Numbered from the stretch's first letter, positions 3,729 to 20,543 are shown. The stretch is DNA of 21,226 nt from Candidatus Tayloriibacteriota bacterium (GCA_026395155.1 JAPLZG010000083.1:1-21226); one strand, 5' to 3'. Notes: generated by a model not told the origin, from the sequence alone. Numbers and translations are program-made.

Positions 3729-3739
3729 TACATTATTTC

Positions 3740-3785
3740 TTATTCGTATTCATTCGTATCATTAGTATAATTCGTATATTGGTAT
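3740..3785. repeat. Dispersed ATACGAAT-type repeat, copy 1
   Basis: ttattcgtattcattcgtatcattagtataattcgtatattggtat lies between the nadK stop and the RNHCP start. Confidence 0.8.
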
Positions 3786-3787
3786 GT

Positions 3788-4483
3788 TTAACTTAATACT
3801 CTTATTATCTTCGCCTTGTTTGCTGATTTTTTAATTATTATCTCATCATTGTCTTCGAGCAATATTTCACTTTCCCCATTATCAGCATAAACAAGCGCAG
3901 GTCCACGAATTATTTTAATTTTTATATTTGAATCTTCTTTAAGAACCATATGATCAGATTGTTCAGTACTATTATTGAAAGCAACTCCGATACCTATTTC
4001 AAAAAAACTATCAGCAATAGATCTGTAATATCCAGTAGAACCAAAAGGTGTTGCAATAATTACTCCATCCCCTATTATTTGTCCGCCAATTTTTTTATCA
4101 TTAACAAATAACTCATATCTTATCGCTCTCCTAGGATTAAAATTATGAACAACTATTTCGTTTAAACCAACCAATTTTTTTCCTTCAAAAAAAGCTGAGA
4201 TTTTCATCTCTTTTTCAATTATATATTTCCTAGAAATAACCTTTTTTAATAATTCTTCTTTGGGAATATTATGACCCTTTTTGCATGTTTCACTTCTCTT
4301 AACAATAAATTTTGGAATTCCGGGATACTTTGCTTCGGCTTTCATAAAAGTTCCATCGCCTCCATAACTTGCAACAACATCTGGTTTTTCTTTTTTATCA
4401 GAATCATCAATAATCTTAAAACCGATCTTTTTTACCAAATCGATTATTTCGTCTCTTTTTTTACCATGGATAATAATTTTCAT
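3788..4483 (-). CDS. nadK: NAD(+) kinase
   Basis: 231 aa with the GGDGT motif (SYGGDGTFMKA), NEIVV, and GDGVIIATPFGSTGYYRS, the NAD kinase C-terminal signature. Confidence 0.9.
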   Translation of the reverse strand: MKIIIHGKKRDEIIDLVKKIGFKIIDDSDKKEKPDVVASYGGDGTFMKAEAKYPGIPKFIVKRSETCKKGHNIPKEELLKKVISRKYIIEKEMKISAFFEGKKLVGLNEIVVHNFNPRRAIRYELFVNDKKIGGQIIGDGVIIATPFGSTGYYRSIADSFFEIGIGVAFNNSTEQSDHMVLKEDSNIKIKIIRGPALVYADNGESEILLEDNDEIIIKKSANKAKIIRVLS

Positions 4484-9603: not shown

Positions 9604-9737
9604 CCAGTGAATAGGTTTTAGGTGCTAGTTTCTAGGTTTTAGTATCAAAAATCTATATTATAGGCCGTATTTTTATGTTTCACATGAAATCATCTGTATT
9701 CATCTCCTCCGAATAGTGTAGTACGAAGTACTTCCAA

Positions 9738-9832
9738 TAAATCCCATCCTTGGTTGAGGAGGGGTGGTGAGTCTGCGAACCGGGGTGGTGTGTTTGGAGG
9801 AGTACCGAGTCTTCGAGGGGAGGTGGTGTAAT
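9738..9832. repeat. G+C-rich conserved element, copy A (candidate structured RNA or protein-binding array)
   Basis: Aligns along about 95 nt with 20440-20543. Shared features are aaatcccat, a ccttNNttRagg hairpin, GGGGTGGTGAGTCTGCGAACCGGGGYGGTGTGT and GAGGGGAGGTGGTGT. Confidence 0.7.
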
Positions 9833-9974
9833 CTCCTCTATTCCAAACTTAAAGACAAAAAAACCATATCTTAAGCCAAATTTTATGTTTCATGTGAAAA
9901 AAAGTAGGCCACCCCACACCTTTTTATAAATATGCAACCCCAAATACCAAGATCATACGGACTCGTGCTTGTAT

Positions 9975-10019
9975 TATTCGTATCCATTCGTATCATTAGT
10001 ATAATTCGTATATTGGTAT
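9975..10019. repeat. Dispersed ATACGAAT-type repeat, copy 2
   Basis: ttattcgtatccattcgtatcattagtataattcgtatattggtat is near-identical to 3740-3785 and 17260-17305. It is flanked by a 37-nt direct duplication (9935-9971 / 10034-10071). Confidence 0.8.
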
Positions 10020-10605
10020 TATTCATTCGTTAACAACCCCAAACACCAAAGGTCATACGGACTCGTGCTTGGGAAAGCAGAAGGATGGACTATTCGTCCC
10101 CGCACTCGTCCTGGATTGGTGAGGGGTTAGGAAAATACAGTCGCTTCACTCGTTATTTTCCACAAAAAAAACCGCCCTAACTCTGAGCAGAGCAGTGGGC
10201 GGGTCGAAAAGCGACACCTCGTGAGTTTGCATCCCCTTAAAACATCTTACCGTTTTATAAAAAATGTTTGTAGGATAGATGTAAGGGAAGGAAAAAAGAT
10301 GTGAACATCACCAAGCGAACTTTTCAATTTCGAAGCGCGATCAACGCTTCAGAAAGAACATTCAACTAGATTGTCGAGGAGAACAAGAAACTTGAGTTGC
10401 ATGTCTAATTTCTTATTTGACTTTCCAATTGATCCTTAGTAATTAAAGGACATTCATTATATGACTACAAATAAGGATATTATTTCTAATAATTTTAGAA
10501 TTAAAATATTTTATTCAGTTAAAATTATTTACTTGCCATACATTTTAACAAATTTTGCTTTTTATTTTTAAAAAAATAAATTTAATTCATAAAAAAATAT
10601 CTTTG

Positions 10606-10630: not shown

Positions 10631-11377
10631 ATGTTTGAAAAATATTTAAAAGAAATTGGATTGAGTGAAAAAGAAGCAGAAGTTTATCTAGCACTTTTAC
10701 GAGGTGACAGTTTTTCAATATTAGAAATTTCTAAAAAAACAAAAATAAATCGAACAACAATTTATCCTGTAATAAAATCTTTATCTGAAAAAGGTTTAGT
10801 TAGTGAAACAACCACAAATACAAAAGTAAATTACCAAGCTGAATCTCCAGATAGATTAGAAACTTTTATAGAGAGACAAAAGATACTTCTCGAAGAGAAT
10901 TCAAAGAAAATGAAGGATATTATTCCTCAATTAAAAAGTACTCAAAGGGAAGTGGGGGAGAGACCTGTTGTGAAATATTTTGAAGGTAAAGAGGGAATAA
11001 TAAGCGTAAATGAAGATCTCTTTAGTAATCCAGTAGAGGGGGAAAAGGCTTATATGATATATTCTAAAGATCTTGTGAATGAGGTCTTTAAAAAAGATGA
11101 AACAGCCAAATTTAAAAATAACAGAATTAAAGAAAAAATAAAAGGAATATCAATATATAATTATAAAGATAATAGTATTCCGAGTGATGAAACTTCAACA
11201 AGACTAAAAATTGATGAAAACAAATACCCCATAAATTGCGATATATCAATATACAAGGATAAAATTAGAATAGCTACGTTGAAAAAAAATCTATCAGGAA
11301 TTTATATTCAGAGTACCGATCTAGCGGAGACTATGAAAAGTTTAATTAGACTGATTCATGATTTACTAGCTAAATAA
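10631..11377 (+). CDS. TrmB-family transcriptional regulator
   Basis: 248 aa. The N-terminus LGLSEKEAEVYLALLRGDSFSILEISKKTKINRTTIYPVIKSLSEKGLVS is a typical TrmB winged-helix domain. Confidence 0.8.
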   Translation: MFEKYLKEIGLSEKEAEVYLALLRGDSFSILEISKKTKINRTTIYPVIKSLSEKGLVSETTTNTKVNYQAESPDRLETFIERQKILLEENSKKMKDIIPQLKSTQREVGERPVVKYFEGKEGIISVNEDLFSNPVEGEKAYMIYSKDLVNEVFKKDETAKFKNNRIKEKIKGISIYNYKDNSIPSDETSTRLKIDENKYPINCDISIYKDKIRIATLKKNLSGIYIQSTDLAETMKSLIRLIHDLLAK

Positions 11378-11386
11378 ATTAAAAGA

Positions 11387-11415
11387 GGGGCTCGGATGAA
11401 AATCATCCGAGCCCC
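11387..11415 (+). terminator. Strong hairpin after the TrmB-like gene, a terminator candidate without a clean U-tract
   Basis: ggggctcggatga-aaa-tcatccgagcccc forms a 13-bp stem. The downstream sequence ttgagcc is not T-rich. Confidence 0.5.
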
Positions 11416-11802
11416 TTGAGCCAAAAGGTCATTGAAATTAACACCTTTTGATACTAAGCTGTGTGTTTTAGTCTCACCTCCGAAGTTGGTTGTTGAAGAA
11501 CATAAAATACCCGACATCTGAAACAAGTATAGCAAATTAAAAATCTTTGTCAAGCAATTTTGACAGTTTTATCTATTTTGTATCTATAAATGCTAAAATG
11601 TGCCCGATTTATATGGGTATTTTTGATATTAGCTAAAAAATAGGTGTTTTTGACCAAAAACACACTGAAATTAGTACAAAATGGTAAAAGTTTATGTCAA
11701 AATTTAATGTATTATGTTTATGCTCGTTGACATTATATACCATATTTAATCTTTATTCATAGCCATATTTTTTATATCTAAAAAAGAAAATGTCATTTTC
11801 AC

Positions 11803-11830
11803 TTGACAAAAACATGATTTCATATATACT
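11803..11830 (+). promoter_or_regulatory. Sigma-70-type promoter of the hammerhead island
   Basis: TTGACA (11803-11808), a 16-nt spacer, then TATACT (11825-11830). A TGTCA-N8-TGACA inverted repeat (11791-11808) overlaps the -35 element. Confidence 0.6.
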
Positions 11831-11855
11831 GTCTTTAGAAAGTTAATTTTGATCC

Positions 11856-11909
11856 GTTTCCTTCTGAGTGCTTCCGCCTAGATAATATCGCGGACACTCA
11901 GAAGGGAAC
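11856..11909 (+). other. Long leader hairpin at the 5' end of the island transcript
   Basis: gtttccttctgagtg pairs with cactcagaagggaac (15 bp). An inner tccgc/gcgga stem carries a 12-nt loop. Confidence 0.7.
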
Positions 11910-12003
11910 AGATCAGTCTGAAGTTCATCGTCAGAAAAACTTTCCTAAGTTTATTAAATAGGAGGTAACATTCAGAACCAAATCTGAAAATGGGGATACC
12001 AAC

Positions 12004-12075
12004 ATGACATACTACGTCGTGAATGGTGTCGTCTTCATGAGCCATAAAGAGGCTCTTGAAGCGATGCGGGGTTAA
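12004..12075 (+). CDS. Possible 23-aa micro-ORF (MTYYVVNGVVFMSHKEALEAMRG)
   Basis: ATG-to-TAA frame read directly from the sequence. No convincing SD lies at the correct spacing; the AGGAGG at 11960-11965 is too far upstream. Confidence 0.2.
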   Translation: MTYYVVNGVVFMSHKEALEAMRG

Positions 12076-12135
12076 ACTCCCCATTATCCGAGCAAACAGC
12101 TCGTTGCGACAAAATCCGGTCGCCTAAAAGCAGGT

Positions 12136-12223
12136 AAAAAGTTTTGTCACAGTTTTACTTTGAAAAAATGTGAGCCTAGAGGAAGCAGAGCCTCACCGAG
12201 ACGAAAGTTTCGGTTTCTGTCTC
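12136..12223 (+). repeat. Left copy of the 88-nt perfect direct repeat, ending 2 nt past the HHR1 cleavage site
   Basis: aaaaagttttgtcacagttttactttgaaaaaatgtgagcctagaggaagcagagcctcaccgagacgaaagtttcggtttctgtctc is identical to 14081-14168. Weaker similarity extends about 28 nt further upstream. Confidence 0.95.
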
Positions 12224-12291
12224 CGACCCAGTCGGACTGATGAGTTTTCCATTACAATCTCTAGTGAGGTTGGTGGTATGACGAAACAGAG
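12214..12291 (+). ncRNA. Hammerhead ribozyme HHR1 (type III topology, long stem II); predicted cleavage after C12221
   Basis: uuucuGUC, then stem I tccgac-cca-gtcgga, then CUGAUGA (12237-12243). A 39-nt imperfect stem II follows, then GAAA (12283-12286), then cagag pairing with uucug. Confidence 0.9.
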
Positions 12292-12318
12292 TGTTCTTTA
12301 AAATTAAAAGGAAAAAAA

Positions 12319-12519
12319 GTGAGTACAAATAAAACTTTCACAATCGGGGAATTTGTTTTTATTTTAGTGGGTGTGGTTTTTTTGTTAATTGCAATCTACT
12401 ACACCACGGTAGCTTTTATTCACAAAGAGACGCCCCCGATTCAATCCAATATCGCGGAACTAATGGGGATCTTGAATCTCTTTACAGCTTTTATATTAAG
12501 GGCTGCACTCAAAAAATAA
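12319..12519 (+). CDS. Small membrane protein, 66 aa, two predicted TM helices
   Basis: GTG start with AAAGGA 6 nt upstream. Hydrophobic segments are FVFILVGVVFLLIAIYYTTVAF and LMGILNLFTAFILRAAL. Confidence 0.6.
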   Translation: MSTNKTFTIGEFVFILVGVVFLLIAIYYTTVAFIHKETPPIQSNIAELMGILNLFTAFILRAALKK

Positions 12520-12572
12520 CGTAAAGAAATGGGTACGTTTAAACCCCATTCAACCCGGATATGATATCTGGG

Positions 12573-12655
12573 TTCTGTCCTGAGATAGGTTTTCTCAGAT
12601 GATGAGTCCAAACCTAAATCAATTTTATTGATCGACAGAGAAGGACGAAACAGAA
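12573..12655 (+). ncRNA. Hammerhead-like motif HHR2 (type III topology, variant core AUGAUGA); predicted cleavage after C12579
   Basis: uucuGUC, then stem I ctgaga-taggttt-tctcag, then AUGAUGA (A in place of C3). Stem II is gtcc...ggac with an inner atcaat/attgat hairpin. GAAA (12647-12650) follows, then cagaa pairing perfectly with uucug. Confidence 0.55.
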
Positions 12656-12730
12656 GTTCTTTGTAAAGACGTTCAGATAATCGTCTTTAAACAATCTGCG
12701 TAAAGCATGCGTTAATGCCTCGGAGAAAAC

Positions 12731-12871
12731 ATGCCACAGGGAAGGCGAGAGCTTACCTGCACTAAGTGCAAAAAGGTTTTCAAAACACATTCGTCCAATC
12801 GGACATTGTGTCACACCTGCAAGCCTAAGTGCAGAGAGCGTCACTACTTCAAAAAAGTAGCGACACTCTAG
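12731..12871 (+). CDS. Zinc-ribbon small protein, 46 aa (not in the supplied ORF track)
   Basis: MPQGRRELTCTKCKKVFKTHSSNRTLCHTCKPKCRERHYFKKVATL has paired CxxC motifs (C10/C13 and C27/C30). GGAG lies 6 nt upstream of the ATG. Confidence 0.6.
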   Translation: MPQGRRELTCTKCKKVFKTHSSNRTLCHTCKPKCRERHYFKKVATL

Positions 12872-13049
12872 CCAAGCGCAGTATCTTCCGGAAGGTCTAA
12901 GAGTCAGACCGTTTTGCGAACCGGACGAGGTGGAGAAAACCACCTTTAGAACAGAAGTAAGTAAGGGCACATAACTCTACATAATGTCCTGGAAACAAAA
13001 ATCCGTGGAGAAAACCACGTGAAAAACCCGAACATGCAATGTGTTCGGT

Positions 13050-13102
13050 TTCTGTCTCACGATATGTTTCGTGACTGATGAGTCCAGAAGGACGAAACAG
13101 AA
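13050..13102 (+). ncRNA. Hammerhead ribozyme HHR3 (minimal type III); predicted cleavage after C13056
   Basis: uucuGUC, then stem I tcacga-tatgtt-tcgtga, then CUGAUGA (13075-13081). Stem II is gtcc-agaa-ggac, followed by GAAA (13094-13097) and cagaa. Confidence 0.92.
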
Positions 13103-13153
13103 TCCCAGTAGTAGAGCAAAGCTTACTACGGGGCAAGTGTTCTTTTAAAAAAC

Positions 13154-13207
13154 GTCCTGCGTTTTAATTTGAAATTATTTTTTTAATTTTAAATTAAAAC
13201 GCAGGAC
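13154..13207. other. Long perfect AT-rich hairpin inside the non-coding unit
   Basis: gtcctgcgttttaattt pairs with aaattaaaacgcaggac (17 bp), plus inner aaatta/taattt pairing. The minus-strand reading is followed by a T-run, so it would look like a minus-strand terminator. Confidence 0.75.
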
Positions 13208-13480
13208 CCTTGCAGGGGTTTGGCTAATTGCCCTCAGGTTGGGTGCACTCTCCTGAGAACTGAGTAGATTTAAGACTCAGAGCGAAATATCTCTTTACGA
13301 AGAGTATTTCGGTAGGGGTGTTCTAAAATACCTCACACTGCACGGCATGGAGATGTCGTTAATCCAAAACTAAAGCGAAAACTCACGTCCCGCATTTTTA
13401 GGGACGTCGACTTCGCTTAATGTTTGGGATATCTCCCGAGGGTGTTGTTGGGTGTCTGAATACATCCAACAGCATCCTCG

Positions 13481-13558
13481 TCTCTGTCTCCGACCCAGTC
13501 GGACTGATGAGTTTTTCATTACAATCTCTTGCGAGGTTGGTGATAAGACGAAACAGAG
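13481..13558 (+). ncRNA. Hammerhead ribozyme HHR4 (type III, long stem II, paralogue of HHR1); predicted cleavage after C13488
   Basis: cucuGUC, then stem I tccgac-cca-gtcgga, then CUGAUGA (13504-13510). A 39-nt stem II follows, then GAAA (13550-13553), then cagag pairing perfectly with cucug. Confidence 0.9.
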
Positions 13559-13581
13559 TGTTCTTTACAAGGATTTCCAAA

Positions 13582-13794
13582 ATGAAAAAGCAGACAATTC
13601 GAGACATAGTGATAGAAAAAGCGAGTAGTCGAATTAATAATGATGAGATATCGGATTACAAAGATTTTGCGGACGCTCTCAGTAGTAACATTGGCGACAT
13701 TTTGCTTCTTCGTCCGAGAATTGCCAGCCTTTTTGAGGATATGCCGGATGGCTTTCAGAGCCCTCGTGGATTCTCTGATTGGTTGGTTCAATGA
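13582..13794 (+). CDS. Hypothetical small protein, 70 aa
   Basis: ATG preceded by AAGGA. The ORF-track N-terminus (13420-13581) runs through HHR4 and is rejected. The protein begins MKKQTIRDIVIEKASSRINNDE... Confidence 0.6.
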   Translation: MKKQTIRDIVIEKASSRINNDEISDYKDFADALSSNIGDILLLRPRIASLFEDMPDGFQSPRGFSDWLVQ

Positions 13795-13864
13795 TGTTGC
13801 TGATTAACATTCAAAATCAGACGGCCCCAACCCGATGTTGGGAAGATTTATTTCTGAGGATTTT

Positions 13865-14008
13865 ATGAGTCTAGCCGGGATTAAAACGGGATCGGGACAT
13901 ACCAAGGGACACTCCAACAAGAAAAGGTGGACAACCCATCAAATCTTGAAGGAGTCTTCCAAAAGGAAGTCTCGCATTCTCGGGCGGCTGGAATGCCGTC
14001 AGATCTGA
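13865..14008 (+). CDS. Possible basic small protein, 47 aa
   Basis: MSLAGIKTGSGHTKGHSNKKRWTTHQILKESSKRKSRILGRLECRQI, with GAGG 5 nt upstream of the ATG. Not in the ORF track. Confidence 0.35.
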   Translation: MSLAGIKTGSGHTKGHSNKKRWTTHQILKESSKRKSRILGRLECRQI

Positions 14009-14080
14009 ATTAATCAACAGACTTAAGCAACTCTTCAAAGACAATTGAAGTTTCCACAAATCCGGTGGTAGAAAAAAAGG

Positions 14081-14168
14081 AAAAAGTTTTGTCACAGTTT
14101 TACTTTGAAAAAATGTGAGCCTAGAGGAAGCAGAGCCTCACCGAGACGAAAGTTTCGGTTTCTGTCTC
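14081..14168 (+). repeat. Right copy of the 88-nt perfect direct repeat, ending 2 nt past the HHR5 cleavage site
   Basis: Identical to 12136-12223 at an offset of exactly 1945 nt. Confidence 0.95.
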
Positions 14169-14212
14169 ACGATATGTTTCGTGACTGATGAGCTCATAAG
14201 AGCGAAACAGAA
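14160..14212 (+). ncRNA. Hammerhead ribozyme HHR5 (minimal type III, paralogue of HHR3); predicted cleavage after C14166
   Basis: uucuGUC, then stem I tcacga-tatgtt-tcgtga, then CUGAUGA (14185-14191). Stem II is gctc-ataa-gagc, followed by GAAA (14204-14207) and cagaa. Confidence 0.92.
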
Positions 14213-14234
14213 AATGTTCTTTGAAAGGTATTTT

Positions 14235-14456
14235 ATGGAAAGTTATCATTTCCGAAAAATGGTTTCAACCCTTCATAAAAAAAATGGTAAGAAAGGCACA
14301 TGCCCAATGTGCACACTTCGACAAGCATTGCTTTCTGGAGAAGTCACCGAGTTTGACCTCCTAAACCTTCGTGGATTCGGAAATCAAAGCCTAAATCAAG
14401 TCTACGGTTTCATGGGTTTAGAACGTAAAGTGACCTTGACGAAAATGGTTTCGTGA
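14235..14456 (+). CDS. Small protein with a helix-hairpin-helix-like motif, 73 aa
   Basis: ATG preceded by AAAGG. LLNLRGFGNQSLNQVYGFMGL resembles the RpoA-CTD-type HhH (L-x-GFG-x-x-SL-x-x-I/V). The ORF-track N-terminus runs through HHR5 and is rejected. Confidence 0.6.
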   Translation: MESYHFRKMVSTLHKKNGKKGTCPMCTLRQALLSGEVTEFDLLNLRGFGNQSLNQVYGFMGLERKVTLTKMVS

Positions 14457-14737
14457 ACTTGGCCAAAACAGAGTTCTCTTGCAAGTAGTAATCAACTTGA
14501 CCGCCCTTGTCGTGGGTTAAAAAATTACGAATATTTTAGGAGTGTTAGAAAACAACCCCTCGTAAGGTGTCGAGACAAAAAAACACCCCTATTTCTGCCT
14601 GGCCAAGAAATAGTGACCCGAGATAAAGGGAAGCGGCCCCTCTGAAAGGTATTCCTGAGTAAAGACGCCTTAGAAATAAGGTTTGAGGAACAAAATCCTC
14701 ATATTAAGGTCTTGGAATACTGAGTAAGTTGATTCTT

Positions 14738-14765
14738 ACACCTCCAGAAATGGGGGTGTTTTTTT
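14738..14765 (+). terminator. Intrinsic terminator closing the hammerhead island
   Basis: acacctcc-agaaat-gggggtgt forms 8 bp with one G-U pair, followed by TTTTTT. Confidence 0.85.
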
Positions 14766-14869
14766 GTTTGACTTTAAAAAAATAATTGATAATGTTTAAT
14801 TAGATCTTGAGGAATAATTCCGAATGTACTGGATTCTCGTAACGACAAAACCAAGAAAGTGAGTTAAAG

Positions 14870-15472: not shown

Positions 15473-16306
15473 TTACTTTAGTTCCAATAATACTGGACAG
15501 TGGTCACTACCAAACATATCATCAAGTATTTCTGCTTTTTTTATTTTATCTTTTAGATTTGGGGAAACAAAAAAATAATCCAAACGCCAGCCAACATTTC
15601 TATCACGAGCAAAAGTTTTCATATCCCACCAAGAATATTTTATTGTTTCAGGATGAAGTGAGCGGAAAGTATCCGTATATCCAGCTCCGACAACTTTATC
15701 AAGCCAATCTCTTTCAATTCGCAAAAAACCAGTATGGTTTGAATTTTCTTTTGGTCGCGCAATATCTATTTCGTTATGTGCAGTATTTATATCACCACAA
15801 AAAATAATTTCTTTTGCCTGCCCTGAGCTTGTCGAAGGGCCGGACTTCCTCAACTTTTCAATAAATTTCAAAAAATGATCATAAAACTCTAATTTATATT
15901 TTAATCTCTCAGGATCCACACCTCCGTTAGGGAAGTACCCATTGATTACAACCAATTCTTCCTTGAGGTCGGTCCTCAAGGAATTAATACGGCTTAAATA
16001 AATGATTATTAAACGGCCTTCCTTATCCAATTCTGGAATTCCCAATCCATATTCTACATTCGATATTCGATATTCAATATTCGATTTCACATATATTGCA
16101 ACTCCACTGTATCCTTTTCGCATTTTTGAATGATCAAAATATGCATGATATCCAGCAGGGGAAACAACCTCTTGTGGAAGTTGCTCGGGATGGGCCTTTG
16201 TTTCTTGTAAACAAAAAATATCTGGATCAACTTCAAAAATAGAATTGAAAGCTCCTTTTTTATAAAAAGCGCGAAGTCCGTTTACGTTCCAAGAAAGTAA
16301 TTTCAT
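15473..16306 (-). CDS. xth: Exodeoxyribonuclease III / AP endonuclease
   Basis: 277 aa with MKLLSWNVNGLRA, CLQETK, GDINTAHNEIDI and SDHCPV. It carries two short G+C-rich palindromic inserts (see findings). Confidence 0.92.
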   Translation of the reverse strand: MKLLSWNVNGLRAFYKKGAFNSIFEVDPDIFCLQETKAHPEQLPQEVVSPAGYHAYFDHSKMRKGYSGVAIYVKSNIEYRISNVEYGLGIPELDKEGRLIIIYLSRINSLRTDLKEELVVINGYFPNGGVDPERLKYKLEFYDHFLKFIEKLRKSGPSTSSGQAKEIIFCGDINTAHNEIDIARPKENSNHTGFLRIERDWLDKVVGAGYTDTFRSLHPETIKYSWWDMKTFARDRNVGWRLDYFFVSPNLKDKIKKAEILDDMFGSDHCPVLLELK

Positions 16307-17254: not shown

Positions 17255-17259
17255 TTGTA

Positions 17260-17305
17260 TTATTCGTATCCATTCGTATCATTAGTACCATTAGTATATT
17301 GGTAT
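17260..17305. repeat. Dispersed ATACGAAT-type repeat, copy 3
   Basis: ttattcgtatccattcgtatcattagtaccattagtatattggtat abuts the stop codon of the Xer-type recombinase gene. Confidence 0.8.
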
Positions 17306-18279
17306 TATGGTTTATTATGAAACTTTTTGTGGATATCTCGAAGATGTTTATCTGTAATATGTGTATAAATCTGAGTTGTAGCTATATTTGCGTGACCAAG
17401 CATCATTTGAACAGAACGAATATCTGCTCCATTTGAAAGTAAGTCTGTGGCGAAGCAATGGCGGATGACATGGGGTGTCACTTTTTTTGTAATTCCTGCA
17501 ATTGTTGCATATTTTTTTACAATTCTTTCTATTGTACGATGATCAAGACCTTTTAAAATTTCTTTACTTAAGACTCCACCCTTTTTATTTTTATTAGAAG
17601 CTTTTTTCTCATTATAAACAGGAACAAAAAGAGCATCCGACATATCTTTCCTTAAAGCTAAATATTCTTTAATAGCTTTTTTGGCTTCATCAGAAAGAAA
17701 GACCACACGCACTTTATTACCTTTTCCACGGATGGAAAATTCATCCATATTTAAATCCAAATCATTTCCAAGCGAACAAAGTTCGGCTACACGCAAACCA
17801 GTAGAGAAAAGCAATTCCAAAATTGCCTTGTCACGAGCCTTTCTTTCAGGATTTTCTTCTTTATTTGGAGCATCCATAAGACGTTTTAATTCTGCGGGGG
17901 AAATCACATCAATTGAACGTTCACCAACTTTTGCAAGCTCTATATTATCGGCTGGAAGGGAAGTAACGCCACGACGAGTAAGAAATTTAAGAAAAGTTCG
18001 CAAAGCAATCAAATAATAATTTTGAGTTTTTTTACTCATCGTACCACCAGCTGAAACTGGCTCTCCAAATAAGTGATATGCTTTTGCACCAGGTCTACGG
18101 TTGAGCCAGATACGAAATTCGCGAACTTTTTCATTGGTAATATCCTTTGGATCAGTAATTTTAGATTGACTTAAAAAAACTGTTAAATAATGGTCGTAGT
18201 TTCCAATAGTTTTCACCGCTCGTCCTTTTTCTATCTCGATATATTCGAGAAATTGAGTTTTTAGTTCGTTGATGGTCAT
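17305..18279 (-). CDS. Tyrosine recombinase, XerC/XerD family
   Basis: 324 aa with an N-terminal SAM-like domain. The C-terminus has RHCFATDLLSNGADIRSVQMMLGHANIATTQIYTH, giving the R..H-x-x-R..Y catalytic pattern. Confidence 0.9.
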   Translation of the reverse strand: MTINELKTQFLEYIEIEKGRAVKTIGNYDHYLTVFLSQSKITDPKDITNEKVREFRIWLNRRPGAKAYHLFGEPVSAGGTMSKKTQNYYLIALRTFLKFLTRRGVTSLPADNIELAKVGERSIDVISPAELKRLMDAPNKEENPERKARDKAILELLFSTGLRVAELCSLGNDLDLNMDEFSIRGKGNKVRVVFLSDEAKKAIKEYLALRKDMSDALFVPVYNEKKASNKNKKGGVLSKEILKGLDHRTIERIVKKYATIAGITKKVTPHVIRHCFATDLLSNGADIRSVQMMLGHANIATTQIYTHITDKHLRDIHKKFHNKP

Positions 18280-18635
18280 AGATTTTAGATTCTAGATTTC
18301 AGATTTTAGAATAATTCATGAAACCTAAATTCCTTGGATAATAATAGCATAAATACATGTCGCACAATAATTGGGGATGAATATTGAATGTAGAATATTG
18401 AATTTTGTTTCACCAAAGATACAATGCGATATCAGCTTTTTCTGGATTCGTAGCCATTCGTTCACCCTATAAAGTTTGGACTGACGTCCCCCACCAGTGT
18501 ACTTGTGGGGGACAGTAAAATCTTTGATTTTACATCAGTCCAAAATTTATTGGGTAAATTATCAGTAGAGTGCAAAAATGGGTGGGGTTATTCAAGGATT
18601 TGCATATTTGTCTTAAGTATGCTAAATTATGTGGT

Positions 18636-19092: not shown

Positions 19093-19179
19093 AATATTGA
19101 ATGTAGAATATTGTGGAGGAATTTGCCGTAGGCAAATTCCTCCAGCTATTTCTTAATTTAATATTCTACATTCAATATT
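19093..19179. mobile_element. MITE-like 87-bp palindromic element with 20-bp terminal inverted repeats
   Basis: aatattgaatgtagaatatt (19093-19112) pairs with aatattctacattcaatatt (19160-19179). An inner 13-bp hairpin ggaggaatttgcc-gta-ggcaaattcctcc is enclosed. A solo arm copy lies at 18380-18400. Confidence 0.5.
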
Positions 19180-19376
19180 CAAAATGGTATAATAAATGCA
19201 GGTCGAAATAATAGCTACTAGCTTTTAGCTTATAGCTGTTAGTAAATTTAATAGTTTTAATAAATAGGAGTGTAACCCCAGTGAAATATCCGTCTACGAC
19301 GGAGAAAAACTTCAGAAAGTTTTTATTTCACGGGGTGATGATTTTTATAGTCATTATCATTCCTTAAAAATCAATC

Positions 19377-20439: not shown

Positions 20440-20543
20440 AAATCCCATTAGATCCCCACCTTAGTTAAGGCGGGGTGGTGAGTCTGCGAACCGGGGCGGT
20501 GTGTCTGAGGAGCACCCGAGTCCTCGAGGGGGAGGTGGTGTGA
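20440..20543. repeat. G+C-rich conserved element, copy B
   Basis: Aligns with 9738-9832, with substitutions compatible with maintained pairing (gagga..tcctc versus gagga..tcttc). Confidence 0.7.

Follow-up and report, generated by a model that had tools for sequence, protein, structure and literature searches.

A chromosomal array of five type III hammerhead motifs in Candidatus Taylorbacteria: candidate self-cleaving insulators between small cassettes

The hammerhead array and its surroundings

The stretch of DNA analysed here (the window, 21,226 nucleotides (nt) in full; GCA_026395155.1, JAPLZG010000083.1:1-21226) is part of a Candidatus Taylorbacteria (Patescibacteria) chromosome and is not a prophage. 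It carries an array of five hammerhead ribozyme motifs (HH1 to HH5) that span 1.95 kb at spacings of 358-678 nt, with small open reading frames (ORFs) in between. The structural descriptor employed for their detection combined an NUH triplet, the segments NUGANGA and GAAA, closed stems I and II (minimum length 4 and 3 bp, respectively) and an open stem III of 4 bp or more. It yielded exactly five motifs in the 21-kb window, all on the plus strand and none on the minus strand, while 300 dinucleotide shuffles of the window gave a mean of 0.057 motifs per window and a maximum of one. An earlier note on this DNA had described five same-strand type III motifs, one of them with the core AUGAUGA, between a promoter and an intrinsic terminator, in a region of raised G+C content without a long ORF. 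The descriptor and the alignments given below confirmed the motifs, and the cleavage positions claimed in the note were reproduced exactly by the independent descriptor. Promoter and terminator were both found by a consensus scan, the G+C content is 0.41-0.44 inside the array compared to 0.29-0.37 in the adjoining bins, and the credible ORFs are 23-73 amino acids (aa) long. The bit scores and whole-window E-values listed with the hammerheads refer to the Rfam model Hammerhead_3 (RF00008).

11803-11830, plus strand: sigma-70-type promoter TTGACA-16-TATACT, matching 11 of 12 positions in the consensus scan
12214-12292, plus strand: HH1, type III with extended stem II; predicted cleavage after C12221; 28.9 bits, E 0.016
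12572-12656, plus strand: HH2, variant core AUGAUGA and branched stem II; predicted site after C12579; 25.6 bits, E 0.14
13049-13103, plus strand: HH3, compact type III; predicted cleavage after C13056; 43.3 bits, E 1e-6 (family model 71 bits)
13481-13559, plus strand: HH4, type III, 92% identical to HH1 (repeat D2); predicted cleavage after C13488; 37.1 bits, E 7e-5
14159-14213, plus strand: HH5, compact type III, 92% identical to HH3; predicted cleavage after C14166; 46.1 bits, E 2e-7 (family model 71 bits)
14738-14765, plus strand: intrinsic terminator, a 9-bp stem (14738-14759) followed by the T run TTTTTTTG

All five motifs align with RF00008 over its full length (model positions 1-54 of 54), and Rfam with E-value reporting detected no further class of ribozyme in the window. 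The type III topology, with loops closing stems I and II and an open stem III, is seen in the descriptor matches, the RF00008 alignments and the minimum free energy (MFE) structures of HH1, HH3 and HH5. In these three MFE structures the hammerhead fold is formed with an upstream hairpin stacked on stem III. The conserved core and the NUH triplet are present in four of the five motifs, as HH1, HH3, HH4 and HH5 all combine CUGAUGA, GAAA and GUC. Stem III is the same in all five (UUCUGUC / GAAACAGA) while stems I and II differ, and three subtypes are represented: compact (HH3, HH5), with extended stem II (HH1, HH4) and with branched stem II (HH2). Each subtype recurs in other genomes with compensatory changes. 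The stem II extension of HH1, which is common to HH4, is also found at the loci L024 and L188, and the relatives at L194 that carry the stem II insert of HH2 retain the canonical core CUGAUGA. A sixth, degenerate hammerhead was considered at about 14440-14480 and is better read as the conserved start of the terminal non-coding region, which is also present at L188, L192 and L194.

The remaining features between promoter and terminator comprise small ORFs, structured RNA modules that precede hammerheads and non-coding regions. The RNA fragments expected from cleavage are numbered from F1 in the direction of transcription.

11837-12221, plus strand: leader fragment F1, fold z-score -10.7, with a 21-bp hairpin at 11850-11915 (inverted repeat I4)
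12004-12075, plus strand: 23-aa leader ORF MTYYVVNGVVFMSHKEALEAMRG; the peptide is kept in the array leaders of L117 (E 1.7e-4) and L194
12137-12214, plus strand: pre-hammerhead module B, copy 1, ending in the hairpin 12195-12214 and preceding HH1
12293-12299, 12656-12662, 13139-13145, 13560-13566 and 14216-14222, plus strand: GUUCUUU motif (repeat family D4), after each window hammerhead
12319-12519, plus strand: 66-aa ORF with GTG start; hydrophobic, membrane-like stretches by eye; initiation region shared with L093
12731-12871, plus strand: 46-aa ORF with CxxC...CxxC; weak zinc-ribbon match, E 0.004
12885-13049, plus strand: pre-hammerhead module A, a structured RNA of about 165 nt preceding HH3
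13104-13480, plus strand: non-coding, highly structured body of fragment F4 (13057-13488, 432 nt)
13582-13794, plus strand: putative 70-aa ORF from the ORF list, no family match
13865-14008, plus strand: putative 47-aa ORF from the ORF list, no family match
14082-14159, plus strand: pre-hammerhead module B, copy 2, ending in the hairpin 14140-14159 and preceding HH5
14235-14456, plus strand: conserved 73-aa ORF, predicted small four-helix protein (AlphaFold2 model, mean confidence score pLDDT 84.5)
14457-14737, plus strand: non-coding 3' region of the last fragment; conserved in L194 (74% identity across 325 nt) and, at its start, in L192 and L188

One conserved cassette is the 73-aa ORF downstream of HH5. 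Word-based searches returned no homologues, while an exhaustive search identified three relatives, among them P0001 (53% identity, E 1e-14) and P0003. The gene for P0001 is also preceded by a hammerhead and GUGUUCUUU. Conservation of the entire hammerhead-plus-gene unit on an unrelated metagenome contig links the ribozyme with its downstream gene. The predicted structure has no significant neighbour in the PDB (best E 2.1), with only a weak hint of similarity to the C-terminal domain of the RNA polymerase alpha subunit. For the 66-aa ORF, family scans and word-based searches gave neither a family match nor a homologue. The longest plus-strand ORFs that can be called mechanically (124 and 113 aa) run across HH4 and HH5. 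Minus-strand ORFs of 68-118 aa inside the unit have no family match and overlap RNA-level conservation in all frames, and were rejected as genes.

Fold z-scores of the six fragments are -10.7, -3.7, -5.8, -14.4, -2.4 and -4.1, in order, compared to -0.1 to -1.4 for the flanking genes. The most strongly structured one is F4, whose MFE is -184 kcal/mol versus -110 +/- 5 (z -14.4). Its body contains no plus-strand ORF longer than 29 aa wholly within 13104-13480; a 35-aa ORF (13041-13148) runs through HH3. In the MFE structure of F4 the 3' tail pairs with the ACAGA of HH3, by which a hammerhead is rebuilt from the two ends of the same fragment. The first hairpin in F4, an AT-rich stem of 24 bp (13154-13207), is kept with compensatory changes in L018. 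In the tail after the last ORF, a 23-nt stretch (14575-14597) is complementary to the 3' half of the terminator (14745-14767).

A hammerhead family with conserved neighbours in Patescibacteria

Relatives of the window hammerheads were searched with the exact pattern UCUGUC..CUGAUGAG..CGAAACAGA in one genome per species. At least 119 loci were obtained, all such counts being lower bounds, compared to an estimate of about eight pattern matches expected by chance. Among the matches listed, the loci belong overwhelmingly to Saccharibacteria, Paceibacterota and other Patescibacteria, and 68 viral contigs also match the pattern. Covariation was analysed in 54 compact hammerheads (52 from pattern-found loci together with HH3 and HH5), in which stem III is invariant by the search pattern. 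Stems I and II are 99% paired in this set, with 225 double-change cells compared to 67 in shuffles. Double changes occur in nine of the ten variable pairs, and the covariation score is 0.68, with shuffles reaching 0.20 and slid controls no more than 0.13. A covariance model derived from the 52 relatives plus HH3 and HH5 scores the latter two at 71 bits each, a value that is partly circular. The family model (R1) copes poorly with long stem II inserts and misaligned HH1, HH2 and HH4, for which reason it was replaced by the descriptor.

At least 53 same-strand arrays were identified, with 2-9 hammerheads each and a median spacing of 677 nt. The intervals usually hold one small ORF; these cassette ORFs are mostly orphans, about 7 of 63 having a Pfam match. 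In 21 of 23 loci the G+C content of the array exceeds that of the flanks, with a mean difference of +6.9 points. The largest array among the matches listed, at L005 (445-7339 of a Dehalococcoidia metagenome-assembled contig), comprises nine same-strand type III hammerheads within 8 kb and encodes paralogous cassette proteins. At L197 (7770-9819) a family hammerhead lies about 100 nt upstream of a TROVE/Ro60 homologue and 1 kb downstream of a TrmB-like gene. At L188 (20-100) the homologue of the 73-aa protein is preceded by a hammerhead with the core CUGAUGU (A9 to U), a second core variant of the family.

A search for syntenic islands in related genomes, which the earlier note had proposed, was successful: in at least two of them an array occupies the same chromosomal position, between a TrmBL2-like regulator gene and xth/xer, and carries other cassettes. 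Two features upstream of the promoter take part in this conservation.

10631-11377, plus strand: gene of a TrmB/TrmBL2-like DNA-binding protein (Pfam TrmB helix-turn-helix, E 1.4e-15)
11525-11802, no strand assigned: conserved intergenic block upstream of the array promoter, 69-78% identical in L018, L194, L190 and L117; contains a divergent promoter-like site at 11553-11526 on the minus strand

In L018 the TrmB-like gene, an intergenic block of about 290 nt, the promoter, xth and the Xer gene follow one another as in the window, at roughly 70-78% identity; the locus has four hammerheads, and its cassettes are unlike those of the window. L194 and L190 have the regulator, the intergenic block and the promoter in common with the window, and each contains five or more hammerheads. 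In L018, L194 and L190 the spacer of the promoter drifts while both hexamers are kept. At L024, xth and xer are shared with the window and two hammerheads lie within about 1.5 kb; the TrmB-like gene of this locus is only 25% identical and divergently oriented. In a Foldseek comparison, the AlphaFold2 model of the window protein (pLDDT 89.5) resembles archaeal TrmBL2 along its entire length (E 2e-11). The protein is identical to one encoded by a Candidatus Taylorbacteria metagenome-assembled genome and has more than 500 homologues in Patescibacteria. Among the matches listed, 35 of 125 Patescibacteria-type loci have a TrmB-like homologue, tandem or divergent, next to the 5' end of the array, compared to none of the 68 viral ones.

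Conservation extends to RNA elements around the hammerheads. In all five window hammerheads and in most relatives, a hairpin lies immediately next to the 5' strand of stem III. On the other side, GUUCUUU follows each window hammerhead within a few nucleotides, apart from HH3, where one extra hairpin intervenes. The motif is found after 23% (strict) or 38% (relaxed) of the Patescibacteria-type hammerheads, compared to 0% (strict) or at most 6% (relaxed) of the viral ones. Two roles for GUUCUUU were considered and rejected. As an anti-Shine-Dalgarno sequence its distance to the ribosome-binding site varies from 2 to 110 nt and its pairing is barely above the shuffled control, and as a -35 box its corresponding -10 element would land inside the ORF.

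Module A is present in ten copies at nine loci, each directly followed by a type III hammerhead (the window; L018, 2326-2493; L093, 3383-3559 on the minus strand; L189; L190 with two copies; and L191-L194). Compensatory changes are seen in 12 of its 40 predicted pairs and support five helices, and the module carries the invariant stretch GGGCACAUNACUCUANAUAAUGUCC. It has no match in Rfam. The core of module B, GAGCCNNGAGGAAGCAGAGCCUC, likewise occurs in ten copies from nine loci (besides the window L190, L194, L053, L063, L031, L022, L008 and L197), with one G-to-U change at L031, and is followed by a variable hairpin. Its first copy in the window lies in a 97-nt repeat that is 96% identical to 14072-14168. 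Both modules hold an invariant stretch, GAACAGAAG and GCAGAG, respectively, that is complementary to the UCUGU tail left by the predicted cleavage. Tail-complementary upstream motifs were rejected as a general feature of the family, given their modest enrichment (30% versus 16-19%). The modules reassort at the hammerheads: module A is followed by different cassettes depending on the locus, and module B precedes both HH1 and HH5.

The flanks of the window code for a CCA-adding enzyme, NAD kinase, exonuclease III, signal peptidase, a 23S-IVS protein, an Xer-type recombinase, ribosomal protein S15, an NYN protein and four tRNAs. The gene of the Xer-like tyrosine recombinase lies 2.5 kb past the terminator on the opposite strand and is syntenic with S15, NYN and xth in relatives. 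The protein scores 232 bits with XerD versus 123 bits with an integron-integrase model (cut-off 265), all scores being below the respective cut-offs.

Several repeats were also observed in the window. A 54-nt repeat occurs three times (3735-3788, 9969-10022 and 17255-17308) at 89-94% identity; at least two of the copies abut the 3' ends of minus-strand genes, and two of them bracket a 7.3-kb segment with the regulator gene, the array and xth. Two copies of a G+C-rich 87-nt element (9734-9820 and 20445-20531) are 80% identical in this AT-rich genome and have no Rfam match. A near-palindromic AATATTGAATGTAGAATATTG box is repeated at 2275-2295, 18380-18400 and 19093-19113, and short TTCNATATTC tandem repeats are found at 16038-16096 and 19150-19194, both close to gene starts; boxes and tandem repeats may represent operator sites. 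A possible small RNA gene of about 140 nt was noticed between the regulator gene and the array (11380-11553, minus strand), where a strong promoter-like sequence (TTGACA-16-TATACT with TG) and a terminator on the same strand lie some 110 nt apart.

Interpretation of the array

The interpretation that we favour, at a probability of roughly 0.6, is that the region from the conserved promoter to the intrinsic terminator forms one transcription unit, in which the five embedded hammerheads cut the RNA and insulate the cassettes from each other. Each active hammerhead would cut after its GUC as the RNA is made, and Mg2+-dependent self-cleavage at the predicted phosphodiesters would release up to six RNAs of approximately 385, 358, 477, 432, 678 and 600 nt. 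With an inactive HH2, the second and third of these would stay together as an RNA of 835 nt. A released piece would carry a 5'-OH on a compact ribozyme fold, followed by GUUCUUU and then by a ribosome-binding site with a small ORF or by a non-coding RNA, and would terminate in UCUGUC with a 2',3'-cyclic phosphate, preceded by a hairpin or by one of the conserved structured modules. The earlier note had predicted such ends, correctly in view of the type III anatomy and of the hairpin that abuts every stem III. Its count of about six RNAs should be taken as an upper bound, given the core of HH2 and the folds of HH2 and HH4 described below.

Both kinds of ends would be expected to resist 5'-end-dependent and 3' exonucleolytic decay. 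With 5' and 3' ends protected, the hammerheads would therefore serve as built-in insulators that uncouple neighbouring cassettes and allow each RNA its own stability and translation. The near-identical ribozyme repeats may in addition offer homology for the swapping of cassettes, which would explain why relatives carry differing cassettes at the same locus. The adjacent TrmBL2-like protein is likely the transcriptional regulator of the unit.

Several points weigh against this interpretation. Cleavage, RNA ends and stabilities at the array locus are predictions made from the DNA, and internal promoters may exist within the unit. The earlier note had proposed Rfam covariance models as a check, with scores below threshold for all motifs counting as refutation. 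While RF00008 does align all five, every score is below its gathering score of 48.5 (best 46.1), and a default Rfam scan at the gathering threshold reports four tRNAs and zero hammerheads in the window, so that, taken literally, this check went against the motifs. The shortfall can be explained by the long stem II inserts, and in view of the E-values (2e-7 to 0.14) and the covariation in relatives the cut-off is conservative here; absence at the gathering threshold was accordingly rejected as a refutation. HH2 departs from the conserved core by an A in place of C3, its RF00008 alignment marks the 3-8 pair as non-canonical, and it is probably impaired. At equilibrium, the MFE structures of HH2 and HH4 are folds other than the hammerhead. 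The predicted pairing of GUUCUUU with the ribosome-binding site is weak (1.6 versus 1.1 expected pairs), and of the six small ORFs only two gave evidence of conservation. A TrmB-like neighbour is present at 28% of the loci among the matches listed, and when contexts were sampled from the protein side a hammerhead was found about 1 kb downstream in two of four.

Some of the same observations would suit other fates of the RNA. One stem III in all five hammerheads, alongside differing stems I and II, is what could be anticipated if the excised pieces were ligated: tail and 5' ribozyme of a piece would rebuild a nicked hammerhead, modules A and B would guide the capture of the ends, and the reverse reaction or an RtcB-type ligase would seal the nick, giving circles or re-ordered joins. 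The fold of F4 agrees with this in its tail pairing and its viroid-like stability (z -14.4), as do the invariant tail-complementary stretches of both modules and the retention of CUGU/ACAG in about 70% of the family members not picked by the search pattern. The junction of an F4 circle would then be CGTCTCTGTC joined to TCACGATATG. However, among the fragment MFE structures only F4 closes in this way, with F3 and F5 pairing elsewhere; the enrichment of upstream tail-complementary motifs across the family is modest, the proposed long-range pairing is broken in L093, and the window has no RNA ligase gene. Perreault 2011 (PMC3088659) sought spliced or circular products of natural clusters and found none. 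We regard ligation as rather unlikely, and equally doubtful that the array is a bacterial counterpart of retrozyme-type circular-RNA factories, yielding circular non-coding RNAs (notably the 432-nt F4) besides circular small-protein mRNAs, or pieces re-joined in other orders. It is highly improbable that cleavage is conditional, with upstream modules or long stem II inserts competing against stem III or stem I in a switch-like release of RNA. The consensus fold of module A does pair its invariant ACAGAA with the UUCUGU strand of the next hammerhead, every copy of the module found has a hammerhead, and the MFE structure of HH4 pairs the stem II insert with the 5' strands of stems III and I. The competing pairs are nevertheless invariant and thus draw no support from covariation, they are broken in one of nine sequences, co-transcriptional folding favours the local hammerhead stems, and neither a recognisable ligand or aptamer nor an Rfam match was found.

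Other alternatives concern the origin of the cassettes. The hammerheads may be selfish or structural repeats of horizontally moving cassettes that persist by travelling with them and by offering recombination homology, cleavage being incidental or mildly harmful to the host. The raised G+C content of the arrays (21 of 23 loci, mean +6.9 points, and by eye strongly so for the cassette of L024 in its AT-rich genome), the mostly orphan ORFs, the differing cassette content of syntenic loci and the core mutations in HH2 and the L188 copy, as weak selection would give, are all compatible with such a scenario. Against it, core and covarying stems are maintained in hundreds of copies across several Patescibacteria lineages, the conserved accessory modules, hairpin and promoter point to a selected function at the RNA level, and a high G+C content may simply mirror RNA structure since the non-coding fragments are the most structured; we consider this scenario unlikely. 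The atypical G+C content, the tyrosine recombinase gene 2.5 kb downstream, the 68 viral contigs with the same hammerhead family and the occurrence of published clusters in prophages near integrases could also indicate that the island is a prophage remnant or an integrated mobile element whose hammerheads process phage-type transcripts. This is very unlikely for several reasons. No phage structural, replication or lysis families were found among the window genes (PHROG scans gave generic matches only), and megablast and blastn comparisons of the window with 50,697 phage records returned no match; a phage origin of the window was rejected accordingly. The recombinase is XerC/D-like and syntenic with S15, NYN and xth, the array holds the same chromosomal position in at least two related genomes, and TrmB-like neighbours are absent from all 68 viral loci. 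The prophage- and integrase-linked context of published clusters is thus not what surrounds this array. In comparison with these alternatives, insulation of cassettes by self-cleavage is the interpretation we retain.

Comparison with known systems

The earlier note did not recognise the arrangement as a described system, a view that has to be given up since both the layout and the processing of polycistronic RNA have been described in Perreault 2011 (PMC3088659) and taken up in De la Pena 2017 (PMC6155905) and Weinberg 2019 (PMC6765202). Multiple hammerheads flanking single genes or short gene blocks were described in the first of these studies, in which polycistronic constructs of about 2 kb were cleaved in vitro, the Agrobacterium tumefaciens trio was cleaved in Escherichia coli, and processing into gene-length mRNAs was proposed (PMC3088659). 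Such clusters were later noted to flank small non-conserved ORFs, their role being called an open question (PMC6155905), and the idea of differing stability or translation was restated (PMC6765202). As in the published clusters (for example the A. tumefaciens ardA trio, C. scindens and A. caulinodans), several closely spaced hammerheads on one strand of the window flank small genes that vary. In the published clusters, which are located in prophages close to integrases, types I, II and III occur together. The window array is entirely type III; its locus on a Patescibacteria chromosome is free of phage genes, is syntenic in relatives and adjoins a TrmBL2-like gene. The array also has the abutting hairpin, GUUCUUU, modules A and B and non-coding cassettes.

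A hammerhead array as such is therefore ordinary for the field. The syntenic non-phage chromosomal setting, the lineage-wide abundance of the family, the linked regulator and the conserved accessory RNAs appear to be unreported. No papers linking hammerheads with Patescibacteria were found, in a literature coverage that is incomplete, and published metagenomic sets may hold such sequences unlabelled. These features make the question of what bacterial hammerheads do, posed since 2011, more tractable. The window locus offers a clean five-ribozyme array in a stable chromosomal setting with a conserved promoter, a candidate regulator and conserved RNA partners, modules A and B, that were seen only ahead of a hammerhead. 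Some Saccharibacteria can now be cultured and genetically altered, and the abundance of the family in Patescibacteria including this group opens hammerhead function to experiment. The reduced genomes of Patescibacteria are without much of the usual regulatory machinery; arrays that express and exchange small, horizontally acquired cassettes throughout the lineage would, if real, be a distinctive part of the biology of such genomes.

Plant and animal retrozymes and viroid-like circular RNAs (type III or I) resemble the window array in that tandem same-strand hammerheads with matching stem III bracket a stable non-coding RNA, here F4, and in that the cut ends are juxtaposed in a rebuilt hammerhead; circularity of F4 is compatible with its sequence. 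In contrast to retrozymes, the repeats of the window are 59-97 nt long without obvious long terminal repeats, the host is bacterial and most intervals carry ORFs with ribosome-binding sites. Chromosomal integron cassette arrays share the promoter-proximal series of small, mostly orphan genes in one orientation, with structured 50-130 nt repeats in between, as well as the variation of cassettes between related genomes, the atypical base composition and a tyrosine recombinase nearby. Here the repeats are hammerheads with a catalytic core and not attC sites, there is no attI, and the recombinase is Xer-like by its scores, distant and convergent. An integron was rejected on these grounds, and the comparison is an organisational analogy only.

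A natural precedent for a hammerhead that sets the 5' end of an mRNA is the helicase transcript of the haloarchaeal viruses HF1 and HF2, in which the ribozyme lies in the 5' untranslated region a few nucleotides before the start codon and the mapped 5' end is the cleavage site (Perreault 2011, PMC3088659). That system differs from the window array in having a single ribozyme with a variant core in a lytic virus. A functional parallel is provided by synthetic insulators of the RiboJ type, in which a hammerhead and a hairpin are placed between a promoter or cistrons and a gene. Upstream of the ribosome-binding site, such a hammerhead strips the upstream RNA context and leaves a 5'-OH on a structured end. 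The RiboJ-type part is an engineered single copy that originates from a plant satellite RNA. Its function is the one proposed here for the natural copies, and the natural arrays would additionally shape the 3' end of the preceding RNA.

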